Source: Candidatus Roizmanbacteria bacterium UBA1450
GTDB taxonomy: Bacteria; Patescibacteriota; Microgenomatia; UBA1406; GWC2-37-13
Reading direction: 5' to 3'
Length of the DNA stretch: 64,000 nucleotides
NCBI GenBank assembly: GCA_002329205.1
Contig: DCTC01000001.1
Coordinates: 18,530 to 82,529 of the forward strand
Position 1 is the first letter of the stretch; the number at the start of each line of letters is the position of its first letter. Below, piece by piece: positions 9,339-34,407 of this stretch. The notes under the pieces were generated by a model. That model saw only the letters and a program-made list of their open reading frames with translations. It made no database searches and was not told the DNA's origin. The position numbers and the translations under genes are program-made.

Positions 9339-9656
9339 ATGGATCGACTTAAACCTTTTCCACTTACGGAGCAAATTACATCCAGAAAACTTATAAACGG
9401 CAGTCTCGTTGCAGCGATGATATTTTTGGGGGCTTGCAATGATGGAGGAGAGCCGACTCGTGAGCCTGTCCTATGGGTCCCGGAACGGATACGGTGCGGC
9501 AATGGTGAAGGCTACGTCACTCACGAAGAAGACGGATGGGCTTTTCATGATGAACGGATTATCGAAGATGAACCACAGATCAGAAGAGGAATATTCTCAC
9601 AAGCAGAAGCGATCGGGCATTGCACGACAGAGGGAATTCGTAGCCAGGGAAAATAA
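9339..9656 (+). CDS. putative lipoprotein, hypothetical
   Basis: 105 aa with a lipobox-like IFLGAC after a hydrophobic stretch. By eye the gene is visibly GC-richer than its surroundings. Confidence 0.5.
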   Translation: MDRLKPFPLTEQITSRKLINGSLVAAMIFLGACNDGGEPTREPVLWVPERIRCGNGEGYVTHEEDGWAFHDERIIEDEPQIRRGIFSQAEAIGHCTTEGIRSQGK

Positions 9657-9716
9657 TTCATAATTTCCCCTCGGGGACTAGGTATTACATACTGTTGCTT
9701 CTCATCCCCGTACCTT

Positions 9717-9788
9717 GTGAGTCCGCGGGGATTCGAACCCCGAACCAATAGCTTAAGAGGCTACTGCTCTGCCGTTGAGCTACGGACC
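9717..9788 (-). tRNA. tRNA-Lys (anticodon CTT)
   Basis: The reverse complement folds as a cloverleaf. Acceptor GGGTCCG/CGGACTC, D arm GCTC-AACGGCA-GAGC, anticodon loop CTCTTAA, T arm CGGGG-TTCGAAT-CCCCG. No CCA is encoded. Confidence 0.9.
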
Positions 9789-9935
9789 CGTTTTAGTCTT
9801 TGGTCTATAGACTTTGGTCGTTGGAACTTTTTGATCTCAATATTTTATCAGTACCAAAGATTCTTTCCAAACATTAAGTTTCTCAAACTTATGTATAAGT
9901 ACTATTGTCAATCGTCCAAAGACCAATGTCCAACA

Positions 9936-10010
9936 TGGTGCCCCTAGAGGGAATCGAACCCCCATCACTGGTTCCGAAGACCAGTGCTCTATCCTTTAAG
10001 CTATAGGGGC
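9936..10010 (-). tRNA. tRNA-Arg (anticodon TCG)
   Basis: In the reverse complement the acceptor is GCCCCTA/TAGGGGC, the anticodon stem-loop is CTGGT-CTTCGGA-ACCAG and the T loop is TTCGATT. CCA is encoded. Confidence 0.9.
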
Positions 10011-10076
10011 AAATATGCTGTCATATCTGCAAATAACCCGATATTCCAAGAATGTAGATATTATACTATACATATC

Positions 10077-10634
10077 ATGCTGAGCGAAGCGCTATATATT
10101 TTTTCCGTCCTGGCCTTGTTGATCTTTCTGGTATGGGCAAGTGTCTACATCATATCACTCATAGTTTCCTGGTTCCGAGGTGCTCCCTATGTCCCGACAG
10201 CCGATCGTGAAGTCTCTCGAATTCTGAATCATTTACATCCTGACAAAAATGATTACTTTCTGGAGCTCGGTTGTGGAGACGGTCGTGTATTGAGAAAAGC
10301 TGCACAAATATATGGGGTGCGTGGCAAAGGTGTAGATATCAATCCTATTGTCTTATCCAAAGCAAAAATCCTGTGTTCTTTCCAGAAGCTACAAGGCATT
10401 CATTTCTCAGCGGAAGATGTAAAAGAGACTGATTTTTCAGATGCTGATATTATTTATATATTTTTATTTCCGAAACTTGTACAAGAGCTACGGGATAAAT
10501 TATTGAATAAAACGAAAAAGAACGTGACAATTGTCTCACATGGCTTTAAAATTCCTTATCTGAATACATATCAGTCCGAAGTCTTGGCAGGTCCCAAATT
10601 CAAGACATATATTTATCGCAAACCCCACAATTAG
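10077..10634 (+). CDS. class I SAM-dependent methyltransferase with N-terminal TM helix
   Basis: ORF 9984..10634, trimmed to the ATG at 10077 because the longer form overlaps tRNA-Arg. Motif I is LELGCGDGRV and there is an acidic post-I loop (KGVDINP). Confidence 0.8.
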   Translation: MLSEALYIFSVLALLIFLVWASVYIISLIVSWFRGAPYVPTADREVSRILNHLHPDKNDYFLELGCGDGRVLRKAAQIYGVRGKGVDINPIVLSKAKILCSFQKLQGIHFSAEDVKETDFSDADIIYIFLFPKLVQELRDKLLNKTKKNVTIVSHGFKIPYLNTYQSEVLAGPKFKTYIYRKPHN

Positions 10635-11249: not shown

Positions 11250-11885
11250 TTACTGCACGCTTCGTGCATTGGAGAGTTCTTGAGACATGGAGTATTGCGT
11301 CCCTTTCTTTTTTGTATTTGCTGCAAAGGCAGATCCTCGTTTTGCCTTTTTGGACTTGAGCGCTTCCATCCAGGTACCCGATTCACTTATTTTGAGTTTC
11401 AGTGTTTGAAGAACCTTTAGAACGACTTCCAGGAACCTTACGTGATAAATACCTGGTTTTTCCGGCAGAGTATCAATCGTCAATTTTTCAATATCCTTAA
11501 CTTCGCTCATCAGAGCACTGTCTGCTTTCTTGATACTCTCAACTTCCTGTTTGATAGCTTTAATGAGCTCCTTAATTTCTGAAATTTGCCGTTCTTCTTC
11601 TATCTGACGGAAACTGAAGAGAGTTCCCCGTTCGGGATTGAAAGTGCCTTGCTGTTCCTGTTGTTTTTCCTGCTTATCAGGTCCATATTCCAGATGTTCC
11701 TGCTGCAAAAGCTGCTCGAAAATTCCTTTTCCGATATCGCCGAATGCTTCACCGACTTTATTAACTGTGTCTTTGGACAAAGAAGAGATACTTCCTCCAA
11801 CTGAAGAGTCTTTTTCACGTTCTAGGCTTTCACTTTTGACCTGTTGTGCAGATCTATTTGTGTTTTTTGAGCTGCTAAATGCCAT
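11250..11885 (-). CDS. hypothetical coiled-coil protein
   Basis: 211 aa and E/K/Q-rich. It lies immediately downstream of tig on the same strand. No family recognised. Confidence 0.55.
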   Translation of the reverse strand: MAFSSSKNTNRSAQQVKSESLEREKDSSVGGSISSLSKDTVNKVGEAFGDIGKGIFEQLLQQEHLEYGPDKQEKQQEQQGTFNPERGTLFSFRQIEEERQISEIKELIKAIKQEVESIKKADSALMSEVKDIEKLTIDTLPEKPGIYHVRFLEVVLKVLQTLKLKISESGTWMEALKSKKAKRGSAFAANTKKKGTQYSMSQELSNARSVQ

Positions 11886-11897
11886 GCTCTTATTATA

Positions 11898-12767
11898 CTA
11901 CAGGCTATTTATGTAATCAAGGGTCTTCTGTTTGCGCATCAGCGAGGCGTAATAGTACATATTCTGTGCTACTGCCTGCTTTTCTTTTTCATCTTTGATG
12001 CCTGAAAAGACCTTTTCTAATTCTGCCTGCTCTACATTTATACCTTCTTCATCCGCAATTTTCTGTAAGAGAAATTCCATTTTGTAGGTTTCTTCAATTT
12101 CTTTTTTGATTTGTTCCAACATCTGATCCTTCGTCAAATCCTTGGATTTAAGGTAAGATTCCATTGTCAGACCAACCCGCTGTACATCATCCACCAATTT
12201 CGCAAGTCGCTGATTTGCTTCTTCTTCGATTACTAAATCTGAAATTTCGACTTTTGCTTCGGCAAGAAGCGCATCAAGCGCAGCCTGGAATTCAGCGCGC
12301 TGTTGCTTTTCTTTTTCTTCTTCTGTCGGCTCCTGATCTTTACCCGGTACCCAAATATCTGATTTTTTTACCTGTTCCTTTGCTTTTTTTACTTTTTCTT
12401 TATAGTTTCCAAGCTTGATTTCCGGCACGAGAGCCGTTGTCATTTTGATCTGCCATTCTTCGTTCTCTTTTGCTTGCACCAACTCAACTTTTGGTGAAAT
12501 AATCGGTTTAATATCTTCTTTTTTCACAATTTCGGAATAAACTCGGGGAATATATGCTCGAAGAAGATGCTCGTACACAATATCTTTTTGGATTTTTGTT
12601 TCTGCAATATGCTTCGGAGCTTTTCCTTTACGGAATCCTTCGACTTTCAAATCTTTTCGTATAGTTTCAAATGAAGCGTCATATTCCTTCTGAATGTCTT
12701 CCCAGGGAACGGTGACCAACAACTCGATAGTATTTTTAGGAAGATTTTTGCGCGCAAAAGTATACAT
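11898..12767 (-). CDS. tig: trigger factor (short form lacking the PPIase domain)
   Basis: ORF trimmed to the ATG at 12767 (MYTFARKNLPKN...). The N-terminal ribosome-binding domain carries the GFRKGKAP signature. It is followed directly by helical C-domain-like sequence. About 289 aa. Confidence 0.8.
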   Translation of the reverse strand: MYTFARKNLPKNTIELLVTVPWEDIQKEYDASFETIRKDLKVEGFRKGKAPKHIAETKIQKDIVYEHLLRAYIPRVYSEIVKKEDIKPIISPKVELVQAKENEEWQIKMTTALVPEIKLGNYKEKVKKAKEQVKKSDIWVPGKDQEPTEEEKEKQQRAEFQAALDALLAEAKVEISDLVIEEEANQRLAKLVDDVQRVGLTMESYLKSKDLTKDQMLEQIKKEIEETYKMEFLLQKIADEEGINVEQAELEKVFSGIKDEKEKQAVAQNMYYYASLMRKQKTLDYINSL

Positions 12768-12895
12768 AATATAAAAAATAATAAATTCAACTGGGGATAT
12801 TATAAAGCGCAAAACGTGAAACGTAAAGCGTAAAACCCAGAAAAAGTAAGAATTTTTTATAACAGAAACGAAAAAGGAAGTTCCATGGGGAAGCT

Positions 12896-14987: not shown

Positions 14988-15062
14988 GGAGCCGTAGCTC
15001 AATTTGGTTAGAGCGCTTCCCTGTCACGGAAGAGGTTGCGGGTTCAAGTCCCGTCGGTTCCG
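14988..15062 (+). tRNA. tRNA-Asp (anticodon GTC)
   Basis: Acceptor GGAGCCG/CGGTTCC, D arm GCTC-AATTTGGTTA-GAGC, anticodon stem-loop CTTCC-CTGTCAC-GGAAG, T loop TTCAAGT. Confidence 0.9.
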
Positions 15063-15109
15063 CACTTTTTGCCTTAACCGAAGGGTGAAGAGAGACTGGA
15101 GAGGTAGAT

Positions 15110-16987: not shown

Positions 16988-18079
16988 ATGAAGCATAACG
17001 TTTTACAAAATATTCAAAAAATTGCCGTACTTCGGGCGATAGCACTCGGAGATTTTATAATTGCACTTCCGGCACTTAGTGCACTCCGAAAAGCATATTC
17101 CCATACTCAAATTTATCTCCTATGCCGTCCGTGGGTACAGGAACTTGGGAAGGGCAGAAACCTTCCATTTGATCATGTTGTCCCTGTTCCGGTAAGCCGA
17201 GGAGTATATGATGAACCGGGACTCAAAGAAAACGAACAGGAATTACAACAATTTTTCAAAAAACAGCAACAACAAAAATATGACATAGCGATCCAGCTTC
17301 ATGGCGGGGGACAGAACTCAAATGTATTTGTGAATAAATTGAATGCCAAGGTTAGCGTGGGAATGCGTACGCCTGATGCTCCACTTTTGAAAAAATGGAT
17401 TCCTTATAGCTTATATCAACATGAAATATTTCGTTATCTGGAAGTAGTATCACTTATTGGTGCCGAGCCGGTTACTGTTGTTCCCGAGATTCCCGTGATT
17501 GAGCAAGATATAAAGGCAGCAGCTCAAATCCTCTCCAAAACAGAAAATGACCTTATCATCTTACATCCTGGAGCAAGTGACTCGAGACGAACATGGCCCC
17601 CGGAAAAATTTGCAGAACTTGGTGACCGCCTGGCGATGCAGGGATATACCATAGTACTTACCGGAACACATCCGGAGCAATCAATAGTCGATCAAGTAGA
17701 AAATAGTATGAAACACAAACCGATAAATATCTGCGGTAAAACAAATTTCAATAGTTTGATCGGTCTCATGCATCAGGCAAAGGTTGTCATATCCAATGAC
17801 ACAGGACCGCTTCATCTGGCCCGTGCAATCGGGACTCCAACTGTAGGAGTTTATTGGTTTCCCAATATGATTCATTGGTCACCTATTACCCGTAAACAGA
17901 ATGAAACAGCAATTTCCTGGCTCCAGAGATGTGAAATTTGTCATGAGCCTCTTTTTGACATTCACTCCCAAATACCACTCAATGAAATAGAAGTCTGCGG
18001 TCATATGAAATCATATGTAGATATGATTCCTGTTGATGATGTATATCAGAAAACAGAATCAATTTTATCTGCGCACTGA
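16988..18079 (+). CDS. glycosyltransferase family 9 (heptosyltransferase-like)
   Basis: The N-terminal KIAVLRAIALGDFIIALPALSALRKAY matches the GT9 R-x-x-x-LGD motif. C-terminal motifs ILHPGASDSRRTWP and SNDTGPLHLARAIGTPTVGVY are present. The Cys cluster CEICHE...VCGH is also present. Confidence 0.85.
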   Translation: MKHNVLQNIQKIAVLRAIALGDFIIALPALSALRKAYSHTQIYLLCRPWVQELGKGRNLPFDHVVPVPVSRGVYDEPGLKENEQELQQFFKKQQQQKYDIAIQLHGGGQNSNVFVNKLNAKVSVGMRTPDAPLLKKWIPYSLYQHEIFRYLEVVSLIGAEPVTVVPEIPVIEQDIKAAAQILSKTENDLIILHPGASDSRRTWPPEKFAELGDRLAMQGYTIVLTGTHPEQSIVDQVENSMKHKPINICGKTNFNSLIGLMHQAKVVISNDTGPLHLARAIGTPTVGVYWFPNMIHWSPITRKQNETAISWLQRCEICHEPLFDIHSQIPLNEIEVCGHMKSYVDMIPVDDVYQKTESILSAH

Positions 18080-18178: not shown

Positions 18179-20293
18179 ATGAAAAAAATTAAAAACCATA
18201 AGTTTATGAAAATTTCACGTTGCATAACCCTTTCAGGAAAAGCTTTGATTTTTGGCTATCTTTTTATCAGCATCACTGCTTTCCCATTATCTTTCGCACT
18301 CGCACAAGATGCAGAAGTTCCTAATAAACAAGAACTCACCAATCAAATTACACAGGAAGCTTCACAGAATTTTCAACAATCAACACAAGAAACACAGTCT
18401 CCGCCTTCTCAAGAACAAACATCAAATTCCCAGTCTCAACCATCTCCTTCGGATACACAAGCCACAACAGATATAACTAACACCGGGGACAATGCAACAG
18501 TTGATAATTCTTCAACGTCGCAGGAAAACACTTCGGTACAAAATAACAATACTGCCGAAATCAATCAAGAAATCAACGCAACAGCAAATACCGGGAACAA
18601 CGAAGCAAGCCGTAATATCAGCTTCGGGGGAAATGCAGGCGTAATTGCAACAGGTAATGCAGGTGTGAGTACCAATCAAAAAGCTGCCGCAAACAGCAAT
18701 ACAACCGGAATCGGTACATCTTCAGGAGCATCTTCTACATCCAATACTACCAATACAGGCAACGGTTTAACAACAACAACATCTTCACAAAGTACAAAAC
18801 TTACTATGGTCAGCAATGACAACACAGCAATAATCAATCAAGCAGTGAATGCAGAAGCGAATACCGGTGGCAATAAAGCTGATCGCAATATCAGTTTTGG
18901 AGGAAGTGCCGGGGTCATACTGACCGGAACAGCATATACATCCACAAATTTTCTGGCCACAGCCAACGGCAATGTGGTAATCGTGGGAGGAGAAGACAAC
19001 GGCAACGGCCCGGGAAGTGGCGCATCAATTTATATTTTGAATACAGGAAATAACGGTTTTTTCCGGTCCAGCTCTCTTCTGAATCACTCGACAGCTGTAC
19101 AGAATACAAATTATGCAACCGTCAATCAAAGTTGCGGATCTCCGCAAGGACCAGCTCTTTGTATGGCAAATACCGGTTACAATCACGCTGATAGAAATAT
19201 CGGCCTCAATGGAAGTGCAGGAGTCATACAGACAGGAAATGCGGTAGTTTATGTTGATCTCAATGCGGATGTCAATACAAATGAGACTGAGATTTCAGGG
19301 GGTGCCCAGACATCCAGTGCAACAAATACTGAAATTCTGAATACAGGGAATGACTCAAAAGTGGAGACCTCATCAGAAACAAATTCAAATAATGATATTT
19401 CCAATACAAACAGAGCGGACATTAACCAGCAGGTATACGCTACTGCCAATACTGGCTACAATACGGCAAACAGAAATATAAGTTTCGGCGGTGACGCAGG
19501 AGTAATTCTGACAGGCGATGCTGCGGTGCTTGTCGATATGGAAGCAAAAGCAAATGCGAATTCAGCAGAATTAACAACATCGACATCAACAGATCCGGAG
19601 GACACAGCAAGCTTGAATGATCCTCACTATTCCGCCTGCAGTCCAGCCCAACAACAATCGGATATAATGAATACGGGAAATGATGTCCAAATAGATTCAT
19701 CAGCATCTGAGAATTCAAACACAACCGTACAGAACAATAACATTGCCTATCTCACTCAGCAGATACTCGGTTCTGCCAATACCGGTGAAAATACAACAAA
19801 TAGAAATATTGGTCAGGAGACCGGTATTATTTATACCGGTGATGCCGCTTTTCTTACACAAGCCTCTGCTGCAGTAAATAAGAATACAACCAAAATCGGA
19901 TGTGCAATTGCGGCAGTTGTTGATCCCACTCCCACGCCCCCACAGAATCCGTCACCGACTCCAACATCAGCTCCACATCCGACCAGTACACCATCCCCAA
20001 CACCTTCCGTGAACGGGAATGGCAACAATGGAGGAGGCGGAAACAACGGAGGAGGAACCTCAAACGGAACAACAAAAACAACTACAACTGTATTCAAAGG
20101 AGGAATCCCTCTGGCATCGTTAGGAGATGTACTTGGCGCTTCTATATCAGTAAGCAGGCTTCCGACCACAGGTCCAGAAGATACAATTACCTTTCTACTT
20201 GCTGCAATGGCAGTGCTCATCTCCGGTGACTTTCTTCGACGGACTGATTTTGCTTCCAGCAATTACAAGTTCAAAAATAATGAAAGGGGGTGA
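18179..20293 (+). CDS. LPXTG-anchored surface protein with five Asn/Gly/Thr-rich repeat modules
   Basis: Signal peptide, then a Q/S/T-rich spacer. Five modules follow, each containing NTG[DN]..., N-x-A-x-I-N-Q, ANTGxNxAxRNI, G-x-AGVI-x-TG-x-A and N-x-N-x-T. A Pro/Thr linker and a Gly/Asn run follow. The protein ends in LPTTG (20159-20173), a hydrophobic helix and RR. Confidence 0.85.
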   Translation: MKKIKNHKFMKISRCITLSGKALIFGYLFISITAFPLSFALAQDAEVPNKQELTNQITQEASQNFQQSTQETQSPPSQEQTSNSQSQPSPSDTQATTDITNTGDNATVDNSSTSQENTSVQNNNTAEINQEINATANTGNNEASRNISFGGNAGVIATGNAGVSTNQKAAANSNTTGIGTSSGASSTSNTTNTGNGLTTTTSSQSTKLTMVSNDNTAIINQAVNAEANTGGNKADRNISFGGSAGVILTGTAYTSTNFLATANGNVVIVGGEDNGNGPGSGASIYILNTGNNGFFRSSSLLNHSTAVQNTNYATVNQSCGSPQGPALCMANTGYNHADRNIGLNGSAGVIQTGNAVVYVDLNADVNTNETEISGGAQTSSATNTEILNTGNDSKVETSSETNSNNDISNTNRADINQQVYATANTGYNTANRNISFGGDAGVILTGDAAVLVDMEAKANANSAELTTSTSTDPEDTASLNDPHYSACSPAQQQSDIMNTGNDVQIDSSASENSNTTVQNNNIAYLTQQILGSANTGENTTNRNIGQETGIIYTGDAAFLTQASAAVNKNTTKIGCAIAAVVDPTPTPPQNPSPTPTSAPHPTSTPSPTPSVNGNGNNGGGGNNGGGTSNGTTKTTTTVFKGGIPLASLGDVLGASISVSRLPTTGPEDTITFLLAAMAVLISGDFLRRTDFASSNYKFKNNERG

Positions 20294-20304
20294 AACAAAG
20301 AAAC

Positions 20305-21234
20305 ATGTTAAACAAAAAAGCATTACTAACTGGATTTTCATTGCTCGCAGTAATGGGATTGATCGGCACACCCGTAGCACTCGCCGCCACTGATGCAACA
20401 AGCATCGTGAATAGCGGTGATGATGTTGACATAGATACAACATCCAGCTCTTCAACTAATGTCAATGTTAACAACACAAATATTGCAAATGTAACACAGC
20501 AGGTTACTTCACAGGTAAACACCGGAAATAACTCAGCTGACCAGAACATTAGTCTGGACGGACAAGGTACCGGAATTATGACCGGAAACGCCATGTCACA
20601 AGTTGGATTAAATGTAGATGCCAATCACAACATGACTGCAGTCGCAGTAGGCGGCAGCAGTGGTGATACCAATATGACTGATATCGTCAATACAGGTGAT
20701 GATGCAGATATTGACACCACAGCCCGTTCTCGTACAAGAGTGAACGTTAATAACTTTAACCAAGCTTTTGTTCAACAAGCCGCGACAGTCCAAGCCAACT
20801 CCGGTAACAATGATGCAGATCAAAATATCGGTGATGGCCCCTCCATTATGACCGGCAATGCTGGTGCAGCTGTTGGTTTCAACGCAGATGTCAATCACAA
20901 TGACACTGCAATTGCTCTCGGCAGCGGGCTCAGTGCCACCCAGAATGGAGATGGAAATTTCACGAGCATTGTCAACACCGGCGATGACCTGGATGCTGAT
21001 ACTCGTGTCAGAACTCGTACACGAATAACCAGCAATAGCACAAATATTATGTCTGTTCTTCAAAGTACCTTGAGTCAAAGCAACACAGGGGACAATGATG
21101 CAGATCAGAATATCGGTGGTACAGGTCTTATGACTGGTGCTGCAGGTACACAAGTCGGTTCTACAGCTGGCGGCAATCATAATGCGACCTTCTTCGGTGA
21201 CATTATGGATATGCTGTTCTTCTGGATGAGCTAA
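20305..21234 (+). CDS. secreted repeat protein, short unanchored paralogue (three modules)
   Basis: ORF 20290..21234, trimmed to the ATG at 20305 because a GGGGGTG lies upstream. Signal peptide MLNKKALLTGFSLLAVMGLIGTPVALA. There are three modules of IVNTGDD.D.DT...N.N.A.V.Q....NTGNN.ADQNI...IMTGNA...N.NHN.T. No sorting signal is present. Confidence 0.8.
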   Translation: MLNKKALLTGFSLLAVMGLIGTPVALAATDATSIVNSGDDVDIDTTSSSSTNVNVNNTNIANVTQQVTSQVNTGNNSADQNISLDGQGTGIMTGNAMSQVGLNVDANHNMTAVAVGGSSGDTNMTDIVNTGDDADIDTTARSRTRVNVNNFNQAFVQQAATVQANSGNNDADQNIGDGPSIMTGNAGAAVGFNADVNHNDTAIALGSGLSATQNGDGNFTSIVNTGDDLDADTRVRTRTRITSNSTNIMSVLQSTLSQSNTGDNDADQNIGGTGLMTGAAGTQVGSTAGGNHNATFFGDIMDMLFFWMS

Positions 21235-21251
21235 TCTTGTAGGGTTTTCCA

Positions 21252-21279
21252 GTGCTCCGGGGTGTATACCCCGGAGCAC
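21252..21279 (+). terminator. rho-independent terminator
   Basis: GTGCTCCGGGG-TGTATA-CCCCGGAGCAC hairpin followed by T-rich sequence. Confidence 0.65.
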
Positions 21280-21386
21280 GGAAAGGATTATTTATTTTAT
21301 AAAATCTTTTCCTGATAGTCTGTAAGAAAACGCAGTTTGTTTTTGGTTCTTTATAAAAGGATTTGAAACAAATTACGTAGGATATT

Positions 21387-23423
21387 ATGAAAATCATACA
21401 GCTAATTGTTTTGGGAATATATATCCTGATTCAGCCTATGGCAGTATTTGGCTCTCCATCCCTTCCTGAGCCTACTCCCGTTATTACAGATACACCAACT
21501 CCCACGGCGATACCGACAGAACAGTCACCCCCAGAAGAAACTGCGCCAACAACTACTTCGTCACCTTCAACTGATTCGGATACAGGCACGCCACTTGACA
21601 TCGGAGAACAAGTCTTCCCAACTATTGCTGAAAAGCCGAAGCCGGAAGAACTATCTATCACACCTTATCCAGACACCGTCACTACTTTACCAGTTTCTGA
21701 AAGTACTGAAAGCGCAACTGTTGATGATGAGTTTTCCGAGCACATTGAGTCAACACCTATACCTCCAACTATTGAAACGGGTGATGCGGAAAACAAAGTA
21801 ACTGTTGAAAATGTCATCAATACCAATATTACAGGACTAAATAACTGTTTTATCGTAATAACTCATAACATTGATCCCCATGAAGCTATTGATTTAACTG
21901 ATAATTGCGAAGACGTTATTATTTCCGTAGAACCAACTGATGAAACAGTAAATCAGGTAAATGATGCACATATACAAACAACAATCATGGCGATTGCAGA
22001 AACAGGGAAAAATGTAGTATTGCTTCCGGACGGAACGATCAAAACTGGCAATGCCTCGGCAAGTGCAAATCTATTTAACCTGGTGAATACGAACATTGCT
22101 GGAGATAACACCTTATTCGGTGTCATCAATCTGTTTGATGACCAACAGGGAGATATCATTCTGCCTTATGAGTTGGAGTATGTATCAATGTCAGTTCCGA
22201 CAGCAAACGAAATAAAAAAATTTGTTGAACAATTGAATGAAGCAACGGTAATCAACAACGTAACAACACTGACAAATACGGGTTTGAACAGTACCGAAAG
22301 AGGAACAATTGAAACTGGAGAAGCACAATCCATCATACAGATATATGACAAACTCAATACGAATTTGTTCCAATCCGGTTTTTTAATTCTGGAGATCAAT
22401 ACCTACGGTGTCTGGGAAGGGGAATTGATAGGTTGGTGGGGAGAGATCATGAAGTCAGAAAGCCAACTCACTGCCTTTTACAATAATCCATTCAGTCAGA
22501 ACTTCCAGAATAATGAACAAAAGAATATTCTTCAACATAATAAGGCAGAAATTACCAATACGATCGCTCTGATTGCTGATACCGGAAACAATTCCGCATC
22601 AGGAGCAGCAGCCATACAAACCGGTCATGCTGAAACCAAGGCGAATATCGTTACTATTGCCAATACCAATATCACAGGAGACAACTGGTATCATATCGTG
22701 ATCAATATTTTTGATACTTTCAAGGGAAATATTATTTTCCCTAGGCCTGATATCGGAATTACAACTACCGCCGACAAAACAACAGCACAACAAGATGATG
22801 AAATTATGATCACAACGCAGTTTTATAATAAAGGAATTCTGTGGGCAAGAGATACATTGCTCACGACCGAAATTCCCGATGGCTTAGAATTCATCGAGTC
22901 ATCATTTGGAGGAATATTTGAACAAGGAAAAGTGAGTTGGGATTTGGGAAAACTGGCTGCTGAGAATTTTGGGAGTGTGTGGGTAAAAACTCGCGCGAAA
23001 GAAGCGTCTGAAAAGCCGATTTATACAAAGTCATACATAACAACCTCGACTGATGAACCCAATCAGGCTGATAACATGCACATTATCCAATTATTTATCC
23101 GCTTGATACAGAGTGCCAAAAACTCAGATACAACTACAAGTACTTCATCTGAAGTAACAGTTGTCAAGGAATATATCGAGCAAACAGATACAGCTCAACA
23201 GTTGGATTTACAGTCTTTTCTGGCAAAGAACAGTCAGAATTCAGATCTAAAAATATATAAGGATCGTACATCTCATACCATGTATACACCCGAAAGATCA
23301 ATATGGGGAGAGCAGTCTCATCAACCTATTAAACATGCTCAAACAGCTTCTCCATCGTTGCTTCTTCTTTTTTATCTATTCAGTACAATCGGGATGGTCG
23401 TAAAATCATGGATTGAAGATTGA
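21387..23423 (+). CDS. secreted repeat protein, divergent paralogue with DUF11-like domain
   Basis: Signal peptide and a Pro/Thr-rich linker. Four modules of type xTGxA-x(8-9)-N-x-[VL]-NTN-[IL]-x-G follow, for example IKTGNASASANLFNLVNTNIAGDN and IQTGHAETKANIVTIANTNITGDN. Next comes a segment resembling the conserved repeat (DUF11) domain (ITTTADKTTAQQDDEIMITTQFYNKG...VSWDLGKL). The protein ends in a hydrophobic C-terminal tail. Confidence 0.8.
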   Translation: MKIIQLIVLGIYILIQPMAVFGSPSLPEPTPVITDTPTPTAIPTEQSPPEETAPTTTSSPSTDSDTGTPLDIGEQVFPTIAEKPKPEELSITPYPDTVTTLPVSESTESATVDDEFSEHIESTPIPPTIETGDAENKVTVENVINTNITGLNNCFIVITHNIDPHEAIDLTDNCEDVIISVEPTDETVNQVNDAHIQTTIMAIAETGKNVVLLPDGTIKTGNASASANLFNLVNTNIAGDNTLFGVINLFDDQQGDIILPYELEYVSMSVPTANEIKKFVEQLNEATVINNVTTLTNTGLNSTERGTIETGEAQSIIQIYDKLNTNLFQSGFLILEINTYGVWEGELIGWWGEIMKSESQLTAFYNNPFSQNFQNNEQKNILQHNKAEITNTIALIADTGNNSASGAAAIQTGHAETKANIVTIANTNITGDNWYHIVINIFDTFKGNIIFPRPDIGITTTADKTTAQQDDEIMITTQFYNKGILWARDTLLTTEIPDGLEFIESSFGGIFEQGKVSWDLGKLAAENFGSVWVKTRAKEASEKPIYTKSYITTSTDEPNQADNMHIIQLFIRLIQSAKNSDTTTSTSSEVTVVKEYIEQTDTAQQLDLQSFLAKNSQNSDLKIYKDRTSHTMYTPERSIWGEQSHQPIKHAQTASPSLLLLFYLFSTIGMVVKSWIED

Positions 23424-27742: not shown

Positions 27743-29650
27743 ATGAAAAGACAGATAGCATTTATCAGCGAACATGCATCTCCGCTTGCTGCGCTAGGAG
27801 GTGTGGACAGCGGAGGTCAAAATGTATACGTAGCGCAAGTTGCCAGACATCTCTCCAATCTGGGTTATCAAATTGATATGTACACCCGTTGGGATGATCC
27901 ATCTATGCCGCAAATAGTCAATTGGAGCCCTGGAGTCCGCGTTATTCATATAGAAGCCGGACAGAAATCATTTATCCCCAAAGAACAAATGCTTCCTCTT
28001 ATGGATGCATTCACAAAGAATATGCTTTCATTCATGGAATGCGAAGAAATTGAATACAAACTCATCCATGCGCATTTTTTTATGTCAGGACTTGTGGCTG
28101 CAAACATAAAAAAAAGAAAAGGTATTCCGTATGTTATTACATTTCATGCATTGGGTGAGGTACGAAAAAAATTCCAAGGTGAAGCAGATCATTTTCCTCC
28201 GGAGCGATATGACGTCGAAAAGAAAGTCGCGTTTGAAGCAGATAAAGTTATTGCCGAATGCCCTCAGGATAGAGAAGATTTGATCAATCTGTATGATGTC
28301 AATCCAGACAAAATTATAATGATCCCGGCAGGATTTAGTCCGCATGAATTTTATCCAATTGATCAGCTCGTCGCACGCAATGTACTCGGACTTGATCCGA
28401 AAGAACATATCATTCTTCAACTCGGCCGTATGGTACCGCGAAAAGGCGTTGAGAATGTTATCCGAGGAGTACACAGCCTCATTGTGAAGCATGATATGTC
28501 GGCACGTTTGCTGATAGTTGGAGGTGAATCCGATGATGCCGACCCGAAAAAAACACCTGAGATCAAACGATTGTTGCATATAGCACAAGAGCTTGAAATA
28601 GAAAACCATATCACTTTTGTCGGAAGACGTGACCGCAATCAATTAAAGTACTACTACGCTGCATCAGATGTTTTTGTCACAACTCCCTGGTATGAACCGT
28701 TCGGTATCACACCCCTTGAAGCAATGGCTTGCGGTATACCGGTCGTCGGTGCGCGGGTAGGGGGTATCAAATATTCAATACGCGAAGGGAAAACCGGTTA
28801 TCTGGTCTCCCCTGAGAACCCCGAAGAACTGAGCGAAAGACTCAGAGACATACTCTCAAACCCTCAGTTAAAACTGTTTTTTAAGCAAAATGCAATTGAA
28901 CGTGCAAACAGTTTGTTTACCTGGGCCAATATAGCGCATAGCATGTCCAGGCTTTATGAAGAAATTGTTTCTCTTACAGACATTTCTGTAGAGGATACGA
29001 TGTCACTCATAGAACACAATTTTGAACAGTTGATTGAGTCAGCCAATCTTTCAAGAGAACTTCTGCAAATCCCGATCGCAGATGCCGCTCATACTGTAGC
29101 ACATGCCCTGTCCCGAGGGAAAAAACTGCTTGCATGCGGCAACGGCGGCAGTGCGACTGATGCTCAGCATTTTGTCGGAGAGCTTGTCGGCCGCTTTCAA
29201 ATAGACGGAAGAAAGGCGTTGCCTGCTCTTGCTCTCAATGCAGACCCGGCTATTATCACAGCCTGGGCAAATGATTACTCCTACGATGATGTCTATGCAC
29301 GTCAGGTAGAAGCGCATGGTTCGCCCGGAGATATCTTTATGGGTATCAGCACAAGCGGAAGTTCCCGCAATATCATCAGAGCCTTTCGCCGAGCGCGAGA
29401 ACGGGGACTTATCACCATCGCACTTCTCGGCAAACAAGGAGGTCCTGCTCGAAATCTTGCCGACATTGCGATCGTTGTTCCATCGCTTGATACCACTCGC
29501 ATTCAGGAGATTCATATAAATATTATTCATACTCTTTGTGAAGTGATCGAACGGAAAATCATGTCAGAACAACTAGATGTCGAATCGTCTGTCCAAACAC
29601 TCAATCTATTTTCAGGAAGCTACAATCCCATACGACAAACACATTATTAA
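27743..29650 (+). CDS. fusion protein: GT4 glycosyltransferase + SIS-domain sedoheptulose-7-phosphate isomerase (GmhA)
   Basis: The N-terminal roughly 420 aa carry GGVDSGGQNVYV and EPFGITPLEAMACGIPVV, which are GT4 motifs. The C-terminal roughly 190 aa carry LLACGNGGSATDAQHFVGELVGRF, WANDYSYDDVYARQV, GISTSGSSRNII and RIQEIH, which are GmhA motifs. Confidence 0.85.
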   Translation: MKRQIAFISEHASPLAALGGVDSGGQNVYVAQVARHLSNLGYQIDMYTRWDDPSMPQIVNWSPGVRVIHIEAGQKSFIPKEQMLPLMDAFTKNMLSFMECEEIEYKLIHAHFFMSGLVAANIKKRKGIPYVITFHALGEVRKKFQGEADHFPPERYDVEKKVAFEADKVIAECPQDREDLINLYDVNPDKIIMIPAGFSPHEFYPIDQLVARNVLGLDPKEHIILQLGRMVPRKGVENVIRGVHSLIVKHDMSARLLIVGGESDDADPKKTPEIKRLLHIAQELEIENHITFVGRRDRNQLKYYYAASDVFVTTPWYEPFGITPLEAMACGIPVVGARVGGIKYSIREGKTGYLVSPENPEELSERLRDILSNPQLKLFFKQNAIERANSLFTWANIAHSMSRLYEEIVSLTDISVEDTMSLIEHNFEQLIESANLSRELLQIPIADAAHTVAHALSRGKKLLACGNGGSATDAQHFVGELVGRFQIDGRKALPALALNADPAIITAWANDYSYDDVYARQVEAHGSPGDIFMGISTSGSSRNIIRAFRRARERGLITIALLGKQGGPARNLADIAIVVPSLDTTRIQEIHINIIHTLCEVIERKIMSEQLDVESSVQTLNLFSGSYNPIRQTHY

Positions 29651-29664
29651 TTCTGTCTATTGTT

Positions 29665-30378
29665 ATGAACAACTTGAAAGGAAAAACAGCTTTGGTTACC
29701 GGAGGTAGCCAGGGACTAGGAGAACAGATTACACGTGTACTTGCAAATTCAGGTGTCCAAGTCGTTATTGGAGATATACAGGAAGATAAAGCACGTGAAC
29801 TATCTCAAACCATTGAGTATGTATCTGCTGTAAAACTTGATGTGAGTCGTGAAGACAATGTCAAAGAAGTTATCGAACGGATTGTAAAAATGCACGGAAA
29901 GCTGGATATCGTCGTCAACAATGCCGGTATTGATGTGACCAAATCAGTTGAAGACCTTTCTGTCGGGGAGTTTGAGCTGGTGGTGAAAGTAAACCTCATC
30001 GGTCCGTTTCTTGTCTCCAAATATGCTCTTGCGGAGATGAAAAAGAAGAAGAAAGGACATATTGTCAATATCGCGTCAACGGCAGCGAAACGTTCCTGGG
30101 CCAATGCATCCGCTTATCATGCGAGTAAATGGGGGCTTCTCGGTATGAGCCATGGCATGTATGTGGAAGCACGTGAACAGAATATAAAAGTATCAGCAGT
30201 TGTTGCTGGCGGCATGAGAACGCCGTTTATTCTTGAACGCTTTCCAGACACGCCACTGGATAAATTACAGGACCCCAGAAACGTAGCAGAGACTGTGAAG
30301 TTTGTCCTCATGCAGCCTGAGGAGACAATTATACCGGAAGTTATGGTACTACCGCTGATGGAATCCTCATGGCCATAA
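29665..30378 (+). CDS. classical short-chain dehydrogenase/reductase (SDR)
   Basis: TGGSQGLG (the TGxxxGxG motif), NNAG and the catalytic YHASK. At 237 aa it is a classical SDR, not an extended one. Confidence 0.85.
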   Translation: MNNLKGKTALVTGGSQGLGEQITRVLANSGVQVVIGDIQEDKARELSQTIEYVSAVKLDVSREDNVKEVIERIVKMHGKLDIVVNNAGIDVTKSVEDLSVGEFELVVKVNLIGPFLVSKYALAEMKKKKKGHIVNIASTAAKRSWANASAYHASKWGLLGMSHGMYVEAREQNIKVSAVVAGGMRTPFILERFPDTPLDKLQDPRNVAETVKFVLMQPEETIIPEVMVLPLMESSWP

Positions 30379-30425
30379 GAAGGTTTAGGCGGTAGTTACT
30401 AGTTATTATAAACATATTGGAAACT

Positions 30426-30974
30426 ATGAACAAAGCAATTTTTATTGACAAGGACGGAACACTCATCAAAGACATTCCATACAATATCAATCCTGAGAAA
30501 ATGAAACTCAATCCGGGTGCAGTGGATTTGCTGCGATATGCCCAAAAAAAAGGTTACAAGATCATTATTATTTCGAATCAGTCAGGAGTCGCAAGAGGAT
30601 TATTTAAAGAAAATGAGCTCAAAAAGGCCATAGCACGTCTTGAAAAACTGCTCAATAAAAGACATATTTCCATCGATGATTTTTTGTACTGTCCGCACCA
30701 CCCGGAAGGCAAAATAATAGATTATGCATTTTCTTGTGATTGCCGTAAACCGTCACCAGGCTTAATTATGAAGGCAAAAACCAAATATAACATTGACACA
30801 TCTCAGTCATGGATGATAGGAGATATCCTCAACGATATTGAGGCCGGAAATAATGCTGGCTGTTATACGGCGCTTGTCCACAACGGAGGTGAAACAATTT
30901 GGGAAACAGGGAACGCAACGAGACTACCTCATGTGATCGTATCACGTCTTGATCAATTGATAAAAATTATTTAG
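30426..30974 (+). CDS. gmhB: D-glycero-D-manno-heptose 1,7-bisphosphate phosphatase (HAD-IIIA)
   Basis: DKDGT nucleophile motif, Zn-site pattern CPHHP...CDCRKP, and GDILNDIEAG. The start is taken at the ATG at 30426 rather than the TTG at 30417. Confidence 0.85.
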   Translation: MNKAIFIDKDGTLIKDIPYNINPEKMKLNPGAVDLLRYAQKKGYKIIIISNQSGVARGLFKENELKKAIARLEKLLNKRHISIDDFLYCPHHPEGKIIDYAFSCDCRKPSPGLIMKAKTKYNIDTSQSWMIGDILNDIEAGNNAGCYTALVHNGGETIWETGNATRLPHVIVSRLDQLIKII

Positions 30975-30986
30975 CTATTTTCGATT

Positions 30987-32471
30987 ATGGCCACTTACCA
31001 ACATATTCTCAATAAATTTCATGATCTGAAGGTACTTGTTATCGGCGAAATGATGCTCGACTGTTATTTTAAAGGGACTTCTCAGCGTTTAAGCCGTGAA
31101 GCTCCTGTTCCAATCGTCGATCTCAAGGAAAAAGTTGATGTTCCAGGAGGAGCTGCCAATACGGCGCTCAACGTTGCTGCATTGGGGGCTCAAACATTTT
31201 TTCTCTCTGCAGGAGGAGATGATTATGAAGGAAACAAAATTCGCATGCAGCTTTCCGAAAAAAACGTTGATGTGAAGGGGGTTTATTTTGAAAATAAGCG
31301 TGAAACTATGACTAAAAAACGAATTATTTCAGATGATCAGCTATTGCTCCGGTATGACAACGGGTCAATGGGTAGAATTTCCAAAGATACGGAAATTCGC
31401 ATCATCCATTATCTGGACCAAAAATTCAAATTATTTGATGTCATCATTCTTTCAGACTATGATTACGGTATCTTTACTGACAATATCATTCGCCTGATCG
31501 CTTCGCTGCAAGATAAATATCACAAAGTGCTCATACTGGACTCAAAAAAACTAAGCCGGTTCAAACAAATTGAACTGACTGCAGTAAAACCCAACTATGA
31601 ACAGGTTGTTGAGCTATTGAACATTCAGCCTGTTCAGGAACATCGAGTAGATCAAATTCTCCAGCACGGCACAGATATTTTCGACCATGTACATACTCGG
31701 ATTGCCGCGTGTACCATTGATATCGACGGATGTGTTGTTTATGAACGTCACGCAAAACCGACAATCGTTCCGACCACTCCTATGCCCAACGCGAACGCTT
31801 CGGGCGCAGGAGATACGTTTGTGAGTGCTCTTTCCTTGGCTCTCGGTGCGGGTGCGCCCACACCTGAAGCGGCTATGATTGCATCTGCCGCGTCTTCAGT
31901 CGTCGTACAGCGGGATGGAACTACTCAATGTTCTTTTCATGAACTTGAAAAGAAACTGACTCCCCATAAAAAAATCGTATATAACATTGATGATCTTCAA
32001 CTTCTTGTACATCTGTACCGAAAAGAACAAAAGAAGATACTCTTTACCAACGGTTGTTTTGATATTATTCATTCCGGTCATATTTCATTTTTGAAAGAAG
32101 CAAAAACGATGGGAGATATCCTTATAGTCGGACTAAATGATGATGCAAGCGTCAAAGAAGTAACAGGCTATTTTCCTGAACATCCGATCGAAAAAAGAAT
32201 TGAAGTGCTAAAACAGCTCAATATTATTGATCATATCATTCCATTTCACGAGTCCATGCCTTCCGAACTTATAGCAGCAATCCGTCCGGATGTTTTTGTA
32301 AAAGGAGGAAATTACACAACAGAAGACATACCTGAAAGATCAATCGTTAAAAAATATAAGGGCGAAATCAAAATATTGCGCTTTCACACCGGCAAAAAGC
32401 AAACCGGATCGCGACCGGAAATGTTGCACTCCCAAATAAGCAAATTTCCGATTTCCCCCTTCCTTTTGTAA
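30987..32471 (+). CDS. hldE: bifunctional heptose 7-phosphate kinase / heptose 1-phosphate adenylyltransferase (HldE/RfaE)
   Basis: The N-terminal PfkB kinase domain carries VLVIGEMMLDCYFKGTSQRLSREAPVPIV and GAGDTF. The C-terminal cytidylyltransferase-like domain carries FTNGCFDIIHSGHISFL. Confidence 0.9.
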   Translation: MATYQHILNKFHDLKVLVIGEMMLDCYFKGTSQRLSREAPVPIVDLKEKVDVPGGAANTALNVAALGAQTFFLSAGGDDYEGNKIRMQLSEKNVDVKGVYFENKRETMTKKRIISDDQLLLRYDNGSMGRISKDTEIRIIHYLDQKFKLFDVIILSDYDYGIFTDNIIRLIASLQDKYHKVLILDSKKLSRFKQIELTAVKPNYEQVVELLNIQPVQEHRVDQILQHGTDIFDHVHTRIAACTIDIDGCVVYERHAKPTIVPTTPMPNANASGAGDTFVSALSLALGAGAPTPEAAMIASAASSVVVQRDGTTQCSFHELEKKLTPHKKIVYNIDDLQLLVHLYRKEQKKILFTNGCFDIIHSGHISFLKEAKTMGDILIVGLNDDASVKEVTGYFPEHPIEKRIEVLKQLNIIDHIIPFHESMPSELIAAIRPDVFVKGGNYTTEDIPERSIVKKYKGEIKILRFHTGKKQTGSRPEMLHSQISKFPISPFLL

Positions 32472-34198: not shown

Positions 34199-34272
34199 GG
34201 GCGTATAGCTCAGTTGGCTAGAGCGTTACATTGACATTGTAAAGGTCTCAGGTTCAAGTCCTGATACGCCCA
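34199..34272 (+). tRNA. tRNA-Val (anticodon GAC)
   Basis: Acceptor GGGCGTA/TACGCCC, D arm GCTC-AGTTGGCTA-GAGC, anticodon stem-loop TTACA-TTGACAT-TGTAA, T arm TCAGG-TTCAAGT-CCTGA. Confidence 0.9.
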
Positions 34273-34407
34273 CACCGCCATATACCTTAATGTGTTACTA
34301 TCATACAAAGCAGTCTCAGGTTTCCCGATTCGCTTTGCTTCTCGGGATCTGTTTTCCGTAAGCCGATTCCCCAAAACAATTTGAATCAGCAACGGCAAAC
34401 TTGACAC

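Follow-up and report, generated by a model that had tools for sequence, protein, structure and literature searches.

A class-wide cassette of long-module surface proteins in Microgenomatia, with a wall-sorted and an unanchored member that may stack into an anchored cross-beta fibre

Within a 64,000-nucleotide stretch of Candidatus Roizmanbacteria bacterium UBA1450 (contig DCTC01000001.1, positions 18,530 to 82,529; hereafter the window, whose own coordinates are used throughout), three neighbouring genes, which we call A, B and C, encode proteins that share a long repeat module. The host belongs to a Roizmanbacteria-type lineage of the candidate phyla radiation (CPR)/Patescibacteria, class Microgenomatia. 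Protein A is long and carries five modules and a cell-wall sorting signal; protein B is a short paralogue with three modules and no anchor; and protein C joins the core of the module to other parts. The trio recurs throughout the class. Our best explanation, which we put forward tentatively, is that A may be wall-anchored and B free, and that the two would assemble by cross-beta stacking into an anchored fibre. A large part of bacterial diversity belongs to CPR/Patescibacteria, which are thought to live attached to other cells and whose surface structures are almost entirely uncharacterised. With its class-wide occurrence and hundreds of strongly scoring representative proteins, the cassette is a concrete candidate for a major envelope structure.

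Modules and anchoring of the two paralogues

The features of A and B, all on the + strand, are as follows.

18179..20293, +, gene A, 704-amino-acid (aa) long modular surface protein (sequence, AlphaFold2 (AF2) model, hidden Markov models (HMMs))
18179..18304, +, predicted signal peptide of A, aa 1-42, with a hydrophobic core and A-L-A ahead of Q43, read by eye
18467..18739, +, module A1, aa 97-187 (alignment, HMM)
18740..19027, +, module A2, aa 188-283; a conserved G-rich spacer, GGxxNGNGPGSGAS, comes after it (alignment, HMM, orthologues)
19028..19327, +, module A3, aa 284-383, with an inserted loop between the conserved Cys319 and Cys328 (alignment, HMM)
19328..19612, +, module A4, aa 384-478, with its core ending at aa 469 and a long spacer up to aa 493 (alignment, HMM)
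19658..19903, +, module A5, aa 494-575 (alignment, HMM)
19904..20158, +, low-complexity spacer of A, Pro/Thr-rich then Gly/Asn-rich, aa 576-660 (sequence; predicted local distance difference test score (pLDDT) <50 at 575-664)
20159..20290, +, cell-wall sorting signal of A, consisting of LPTTG (aa 661-665), a hydrophobic helix and a basic tail (sequence, sub-threshold HMMs, orthologues)
20290..21234, +, gene B, predicted short secreted paralogue, 314 aa from GTG 20290 (open reading frame (ORF), modules)
20389..20676, +, module B1, aa 34-129 (alignment)
20677..20961, +, module B2, aa 130-224 (alignment)
20962..21204, +, module B3, aa 225-305 (alignment)
21205..21231, +, hydrophobic C-terminal tail of B, IMDMLFFWMS (sequence; short helix in the AF2 model)

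The initial annotation, made from the letters alone, had proposed five modules in the 704-aa ORF (18179-20293, + strand), and this was borne out: an HMM built from the three modules of B alone matches exactly five segments of A (aa 97-187, 191-272, 286-379, 384-469 and 495-575), with per-domain E-values of 4e-13 to 6e-8 and a total score for A of 155.6 bits vs a maximum of -29 among 1000 shuffles. Its interval 18467-19904 corresponds to aa 97-576 of A, and all three peptide strings that it quoted were located, two of them in A (aa 122-161 and 409-448) and one in B (aa 62-102). The modules, which are evident directly, are Asn/Gly/Ala-rich units of 80-95 aa (typically ~85) with three TG turns. 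The motif of six elements offered for them proved nearly correct; its third element should read N-x-N-x-A-x-[IV]-x-Q, and modules 5 and 2 deviate from elements 5 and 6. Alignment of the 5 + 3 modules, a check suggested at the outset, gives 14 invariant columns (8 Asn, 1 Gln, 2 Gly, 1 Ile, 1 Thr and 1 Ala) at pairwise identities of 28-61%. Between modules, nucleotide identity is 43-61% and identity at third codon positions merely 25-44%, and Tandem Repeats Finder detects no array within the genes; therefore the modules are old duplications and not the product of recent slippage, as had been surmised. Orthologues of A are colinear across all five modules.

Protein A consists of a signal peptide, a Q/S/T-rich region with a predicted helix, the five modules, a P/T-rich and then G/N-rich spacer and an LPTTG sorting signal. 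It therefore has the layout of a sortase substrate, with an N-terminal signal peptide and a C-terminal LPXTG motif, hydrophobic segment and basic tail. Cleavage probably follows A-L-A42, judging from the sequence; A42 is invariant among orthologues, and the AF2 model places a helix at aa 8-34. The sorting signal can be read directly as LPTTG-PEDTITFLLAAMAVLISGDFLRR (aa 661-688). Sub-threshold HMM matches to PF00746 (E 0.13) and TIGR01167 (E 0.48) fall at aa 659-683, an LPxTG motif is present in the orthologues, and L661, P662 and G665 are invariant across them. The spacer at aa 576-660 is predicted to be disordered and is presumed to span the wall.

Protein B has a signal peptide, three modules and a hydrophobic/aromatic tail of ~10 residues, whose character is kept across the family of short paralogues; neither the sequence nor the HMM scans revealed an LPXTG motif or other anchor in it. 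The start chosen by the ORF finder, GTG 20290, overlaps the stop codon of A. The real start is probably ATG 20305, giving 309 aa: this ATG lies 11 nucleotides (nt) past the stop of A, behind a Shine-Dalgarno-like AAGGGGGTGA inside A (window 20283-20307), and an identical database protein, P0117, begins there. The division into an anchored and an unanchored protein holds in most related loci examined.

Two features of the modules deserve separate mention. The Cys-bounded loop of module A3 (window 19133-19162, aa 319-328, QSCGSPQGPALCMANTG) has two invariant Cys and may be a disulfide-closed surface loop; of 1210 modules, 9% have an insertion of this type following module position 35, and module 2 of many short paralogues is among them. 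Module position 49 is Arg throughout A (R145, R236, R339, R432 and R542) and Gln in all three modules of B. Uniform inside one protein and different between proteins, this position shows the strongest module-to-module coupling in the covariation analysis given below (z ~25, non-adjacent modules included) and is also coupled to Asp at position 8. Along a stacking axis such residues could form a uniform row, perhaps a ligand-binding stripe.

Fold evidence, a candidate assembly and its rivals

AF2 was run on A with 63 homologues, and the result was read as pLDDT, predicted template-modelling score (pTM) and strands assigned by DSSP (Define Secondary Structure of Proteins). The model is all-beta (mean pLDDT 59.6, pTM 0.55), with module cores (positions ~25-77) at pLDDT 80-95 and with low-confidence or disordered inter-module spacers. 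Each module of A contains strands of about 5, 26-32, 3, 5 and 18-20 residues, split at the three TG/GG motifs. Since a pTM of 0.55 is reached despite ~40% of the chain being disordered, the model argues that the modules form one body.

Mean-field direct-coupling analysis (DCA) of 1112 distinct modules (effective number of sequences, Meff, 965) gave as its main feature a continuous antiparallel ladder, i+j=103-106, which extends between (49,57) and (22,81) and in which z reaches 9. This ladder is observed directly in the alignment; it is confined to the conserved face, and each residue on it has two partners (for instance 36 with 68, 70; 40 with 64, 66, 68), the pattern that interdigitated packing of sheet on sheet would give. 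At the N-T-G-D tip lies another, small ladder (i+j=16). The distribution of insertions and deletions (indels) is likewise a direct observation: among 1210 modules they fall solely after position 35, at positions 52-55 (the Gly-Gly tip) and within the spacer between modules. The distance in residues from position 79 to position 5 of the next module has a hard floor (mode 16, 5th percentile 15, 12 of 850 shorter), near the ~14 residues needed for a return opposite positions 25-11 of the long strand. This floor, the indel sites and the strands of 26-32 residues, which need partners over their full length, together fit a flattened racetrack with one module per rung. When tandem pairs of modules were subjected to DCA only in-register i-i couplings emerged, and adjacent modules were more strongly coupled than k/k+2 pairs at inner-face positions 59-75.

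Foldseek searches with the models were weak throughout. The model of A returned a single, meaningless match (8enq_A, E 9.5), and the 50 weak matches listed for the model of B are nearly all beta-solenoids, headed by FapC and including two CsgA structures, PfbA, SRRP, LpxD and pectate lyases. Such matches indicate that the local geometry of the model is parallel-beta and are not evidence for a known fold. The initial annotation had suggested a beta-solenoid or functional amyloid with stacked Asn, Gln and Gly, reminiscent of the curlin repeat. The first half of that idea gains from the all-beta AF2 model, the covariation, the indels, the spacer and the weak solenoid matches; the specific curlin analogy, read as a relationship, fell away, as described in the last section.

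From these data we infer rung-on-rung stacking, polymerisation and a biological function along the following lines. Each ~85-aa module of A and B would form one very long turn of a flattened, racetrack-shaped beta-solenoid of two sheets. The long strand (module positions 10-51) would run outward and turn at the Gly-Gly tip (52-55), and the return strand (56-81) would lie face to face with the first, with Ala, Val, Ile, Gly and the invariant Asn/Gln on the inner face. The spacer and the first strand of the next module would complete the return side, and the N-T-G-D turn would begin the next rung; successive modules would then stack in register, so that the invariant Asn/Gln positions line up as ladders. 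Export of A, B and C would be by the Sec route, to go by signal peptides read by eye, and a sortase would join A covalently to peptidoglycan through LPTTG, with the Pro/Thr spacer crossing the wall. Protein B would provide the same rungs without the anchor. A body 3-5 rungs tall and ~80 residues around would have very large open beta-edges, which would make edge stacking the most economical way of burying them. As the likeliest mechanism, A would template the edge-to-edge addition of B, and B perhaps that of further B subunits, giving a cross-beta fibre or ribbon that is anchored to the wall and comparable to CsgB/CsgA and to the long and short chaplins. Protein C, with its module core and an adhesin-stalk CLIPPER domain, could serve as an assembly partner, base or adhesin. 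Going further, it is possible, if on the doubtful side, that the cassette is an independently evolved functional amyloid of Microgenomatia, in which an anchored five-rung nucleator, A, would template open-ended polymerisation of B with C as dedicated partner, and whose ~85-residue rungs would be the longest known for a repeat-encoded amyloid. In these ultra-small and presumably episymbiotic cells, such fibres could contribute to pili-like or attachment structures.

Several observations weigh against an anchored, stacking fibre. The AF2 model of B has the same strand pattern as that of A but is poor (mean pLDDT 52.6), and its Foldseek search gave no significant match (best E 7.5e-3, probability 0.08, TM <=0.15, where TM is the template-modelling score); moreover, AF2 tends to favour solenoids for repetitive sequences. 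Taken alone, the DCA ladder is compatible with a face-to-face arch or with an in-plane hairpin. Some couplings off the ladder are unexplained by a straight racetrack, namely Q34-I51 (z 6.8), T6-N26 (6.2), D8-R49 (4.0) and V12-Q34 (3.6), and suggest that the rung is bent, Greek-key-like or staggered between layers. The i-i couplings are strong for non-adjacent modules too, hence confounded by lineage effects and not decisive. A crude motif scan for a TLxTC-type sortase ORF across the window saw none. The core units of C are separated by aromatic-rich segments and this protein looks more globular. Finally, the short hydrophobic helix at the C-terminus of B and the conserved helix ahead of module 1 of A could be caps that prevent polymerisation.

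This last point leads to the alternative that survives best, a finite, capped beta-solenoid that does not polymerise, which we consider possible although unlikely. Under it, A would be a monomer, an adhesin with a beta-helix body and an LPXTG anchor in the manner of PfbA or of the SRRP binding region; B would be soluble, or would stack once on A to close a body of 5+3 rungs, the ends of which would be capped by the helices at the N-terminus of A and the C-terminus of B. The AF2 models do place a helix at aa 50-70 ahead of module 1 of A, where P48 and I57 are nearly invariant, and another at aa 305-313 after module 3 of B, and the persistence of the hydrophobic tail among the short paralogues fits this alternative. 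So do the module numbers, which are fixed in each lineage (5+3, 5+4, 6+4 or 4+4), and the presence of the LPXTG-anchored solenoid adhesins PfbA and SRRP among the weak Foldseek matches. However, both helices are of low confidence (pLDDT ~46-66), and with ~85-residue rungs in 3-5 layers the open edges are so large that a helix of 10 residues would hardly cover them. We know of no capped solenoid with the geometry of an ~85-residue rung.

Appreciably less probable is the absence of any solenoid, with the modules as independent elongated beta-hairpins or small sandwich domains strung like beads into adhesin stalks and with the Asn/Gly motifs serving turns and packing within each domain. A hydrogen-bonded long hairpin would account for the DCA ladder equally well, the spacers between modules are of low complexity and modelled with low confidence, and C joins the same core to aromatic-rich segments and to an immunoglobulin (Ig)-like CLIPPER domain typical of stalks. 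Independent domains are, on the other hand, hard to square with the pTM of A given its disordered share, with continuous DSSP strands of 26-32 residues that need partners over their full length, with the sharp minimum length of the spacer, and with buried-face Asn/Gln that are invariant at the equal position in every module; the weak Foldseek matches, too, are parallel beta-helices and not Ig or hairpin repeats. Least probable of all is a planar S-layer-like or sheath-like lattice co-assembled from A, B and C in place of fibres: three secreted partners, one with a wall anchor and another with a hydrophobic terminal segment, a cassette kept throughout one class, and nearby sugar-pathway and GT9 genes that could glycosylate a coat protein would suit it, but the predicted geometry favours one-dimensional stacking and Pfam/NCBIfam scans detected no SLH or other S-layer anchoring or lattice domain.

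Protein C, recurrence of the cassette and surrounding genes

Two further features lie downstream of B.

21246..21284, +, GC-rich hairpin followed by U-rich sequence (centroid -31.3 kcal/mol, z -5.3)
21387..23423, +, gene C, 678 aa (Pfam, module-core comparison, neighbouring loci)

The hairpin starts 12 nt beyond the stop of B, has perfect 11-bp arms (21252-21262 and 21269-21279) and was missed by a simple terminator scan; its probable role is to separate A-B from C, as a terminator or as an mRNA stabiliser. In protein C a signal peptide and a P/T-rich spacer precede 3.5 copies of the module core (aa 127-153, 184-238, 275-328 and 369-430, corresponding to module positions ~20-79); a CLIPPER/DUF11 domain follows, and the chain ends in a hydrophobic segment, which suggests that the protein is membrane-anchored. 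The domain at aa 455-564 matches PF01345 with 37.9 bits vs a gathering cut-off of 24.6, and is precomputed as CLIPPER in identical loci. CLIPPER is an Ig-like stalk domain of fibrillar adhesins (PMC12617251). Searching with the core region of C returned nine relatives, none with an informative name. The homologue of C in Roizmanbacteria CP065004.1 (locus L001, 9077-10468) stops after ~240 aa beside a transposase gene of the IS1595 family, where A and B are intact; it was probably disrupted by insertion.

The module family extends well beyond this genome. A word-indexed search found 116 relatives of A, none functionally named, whose sources, where given by name, are Candidatus Roizmanbacteria, Woesebacteria, Microgenomates and a single Parcubacteria record; some were titled LPXTG-motif proteins by the Joint Genome Institute (JGI). 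At E<=1e-3 the module profile matched 927 representative proteins, of which 354 reached <=1e-10; each has 1-9 modules, mostly 3-6. Thirty loci were recovered in species representatives of GTDB, the informative titles being Roizman-, Davies-, Gottesman-, Woese-, Levyi- and Chisholmbacteria. The trio, comprising an LPXTG-anchored modular protein, an unanchored protein of 3-4 modules with a hydrophobic tail and a C-like protein, is present in most loci that extend far enough (~30 examined). This conservation of the cassette is seen directly, and it includes an unrelated genomic context (L002). Because the trio is kept together in different contexts, it behaves as a functional unit. Distant lineages have an altered gene order and shorter module variants.

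For example, modules of distant lineages start with ISGNGxNSxN and carry Cys-Cys pairs, and the anchored member there has merely 2-3 modules. These lineages also have an extra secreted two-module ORF of ~200 aa on the opposite strand, so that the superfamily extends beyond the 5+3 architecture. The features in question lie in L024 at 12180-12788 (-) and 9455-10561 (+), with similar ones in L021 and L025-L031. Many of the metagenome-assembled genome (MAG) records among the GTDB representatives at loci L003-L031 are titled 'uncultured Gammaproteobacteria', 'Pseudomonadales' or 'Saccharibacteria', which look like placeholder or wrong taxonomy.

The 20 flanking ORFs that were scanned are housekeeping, transport or sugar-pathway genes. 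Immediately upstream of A lies a GT9 (heptosyltransferase-family) gene (16988-18079), found likewise in the syntenic loci L001 and L033, and ~7-12 kb downstream (27743-32471) are a GT4+SIS fusion, an HAD phosphatase and a PfkB kinase+cytidylyltransferase fusion. Together these resemble a pathway for heptose-type sugar nucleotides. The LPXTG proteins of the lineage suggest that its wall is of Gram-positive type, so the pathway may glycosylate either that wall or the Ser/Thr/Asn-rich proteins described here. Assignment of the GT9 protein as a TibC/AAH-type protein heptosyltransferase was considered and set aside: its best solved relative is the generic GT9 structure 3tov (E 3e-21), followed by WaaF and WaaC, with no match to TibC. 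The remaining surroundings are ordinary, with a gene for a DUF5660 protein adjoining that for trigger factor, a pair also present in L001, and four tRNA genes, Lys-CTT, Arg-TCG, Asp-GTC and Val-GAC (coordinates of this context: 11250-11885, -; 9717-10010, -; 14988-15063, +; 34199-34273, +).

Relation to known families and systems

When A, B and C were scanned against Pfam and NCBIfam at E<=1, nothing came up beyond the DUF11 domain of C and LPXTG matches below threshold; PADLOC had no match for the modules, and sequence searches of the PDB with the protein and with the module profile returned nothing meaningful. As for the proposed curlin analogy, no Curlin_rpt, chaplin, TasA or pectate-lyase Pfam match appeared even at E<=1. 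Homology to curlin was rejected as well by hhalign, in which the 1112-module profile reached 0.6% probability against CsgA R1-R5 and 0.1% against full CsgA; hmmsearch was also negative. The resemblance is a local similarity of motif and, as far as profile comparison indicates, not homology. No paper on this module family turned up in literature searches covering the surface proteins of CPR bacteria, LPXTG, amyloid and beta-helix; by these comparisons the family is large, class-specific and unannotated. One four-module relative, P0108 (437 aa), has a precomputed match to PF28587.1, an entry newer than the Pfam release scanned, and a rescan found nothing; a curated Pfam family may thus cover these proteins in part.

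Should the stacking hold, the cassette would be a third unrelated design of repeat-encoded bacterial cross-beta fibre after curli and Fap, with a long flat rung and a sortase-type anchor; it would inform how imperfect repeats encode amyloid safely and offer a new scaffold for protein materials. If the stacking is wrong, A, B and C still represent a new, large, class-specific family of surface proteins whose fold has no solved counterpart.

Among known systems, the closest precedent in concept is FapC of Pseudomonas, which has three imperfect repeats, each of which forms one cross-beta layer shaped by conserved Asn/Gln/Gly (PMC12392863). FapC (9u4u, 9nqd) resembles A and B in having several long imperfect repeats per chain, variable linkers and conserved Asn/Gln/Gly together with small hydrophobic core residues. 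It is the top Foldseek match to the low-confidence model of B (9u4u_A), at a non-significant level (E 7.5e-3, probability 0.08, TM 0.07/0.11), and there is no sequence match. Its layers hold ~52-62 structured residues in a Greek key, whereas the modules here have ~85 aa and suggest a long racetrack, and it belongs to a fapA-F operon with an outer-membrane channel, in contrast to the monoderm CPR host with its sortase-type anchor. Curli (CsgA/CsgB, PF07012; 8enq, 8c50) show the two-sheet beta-solenoid logic that is proposed here, with Asn/Gln ladders and a local motif like N-x-A-x-x-Q, and similarly pair a cell-attached paralogue, CsgB, with a free major subunit, CsgA, of common repeats. However, the curli repeat is a strand-turn-strand of ~19-23 aa (S-x5-Q-x-G-x-G-N-x-A-x3-Q), Foldseek comparison with the models of A and B gave E 0.14-9.5 and TM <=0.15, and no csgEFG-type (CsgG/E/F) secretion partner was found among the 20 flanking ORFs scanned.

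The division into a long anchored A and a short free B is also reminiscent of the chaplins of Streptomyces, which reportedly comprise long ChpA-C with an LAXTG sorting signal and short ChpD-H. There, too, long sortase-anchored paralogues with more repeats and short secreted ones with fewer occur in a monoderm wall, and the anchored form has been proposed as the base of assembly. Chaplins differ in their ~40-aa hydrophobic domain with a Cys pair, which is unrelated (no PF03777 match was found here), and in that A and B are encoded by adjacent genes accompanied by a third partner, C. PfbA of S. pneumoniae (3zpp/4mr0) and the SRRP binding region of L. reuteri (5nxk) are sortase-anchored with a parallel beta-helix body and are among the weak Foldseek matches, but they are monomeric, right-handed three-sheet helices with rungs of ~20-25 aa, have no free paralogue as partner and show no sequence match. 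Right-handed, pectate-lyase-like parallel beta-helices have three-strand rungs of ~22 aa vs ~85 aa here, and they gave no Pfam match and Foldseek E >=3.6 at TM ~0.05-0.07. What is already known, then, is the kind, a repeat-encoded cross-beta/solenoid surface protein; what is new is the ~85-residue rung, the anchored/free pair with its third partner, and the CPR host.

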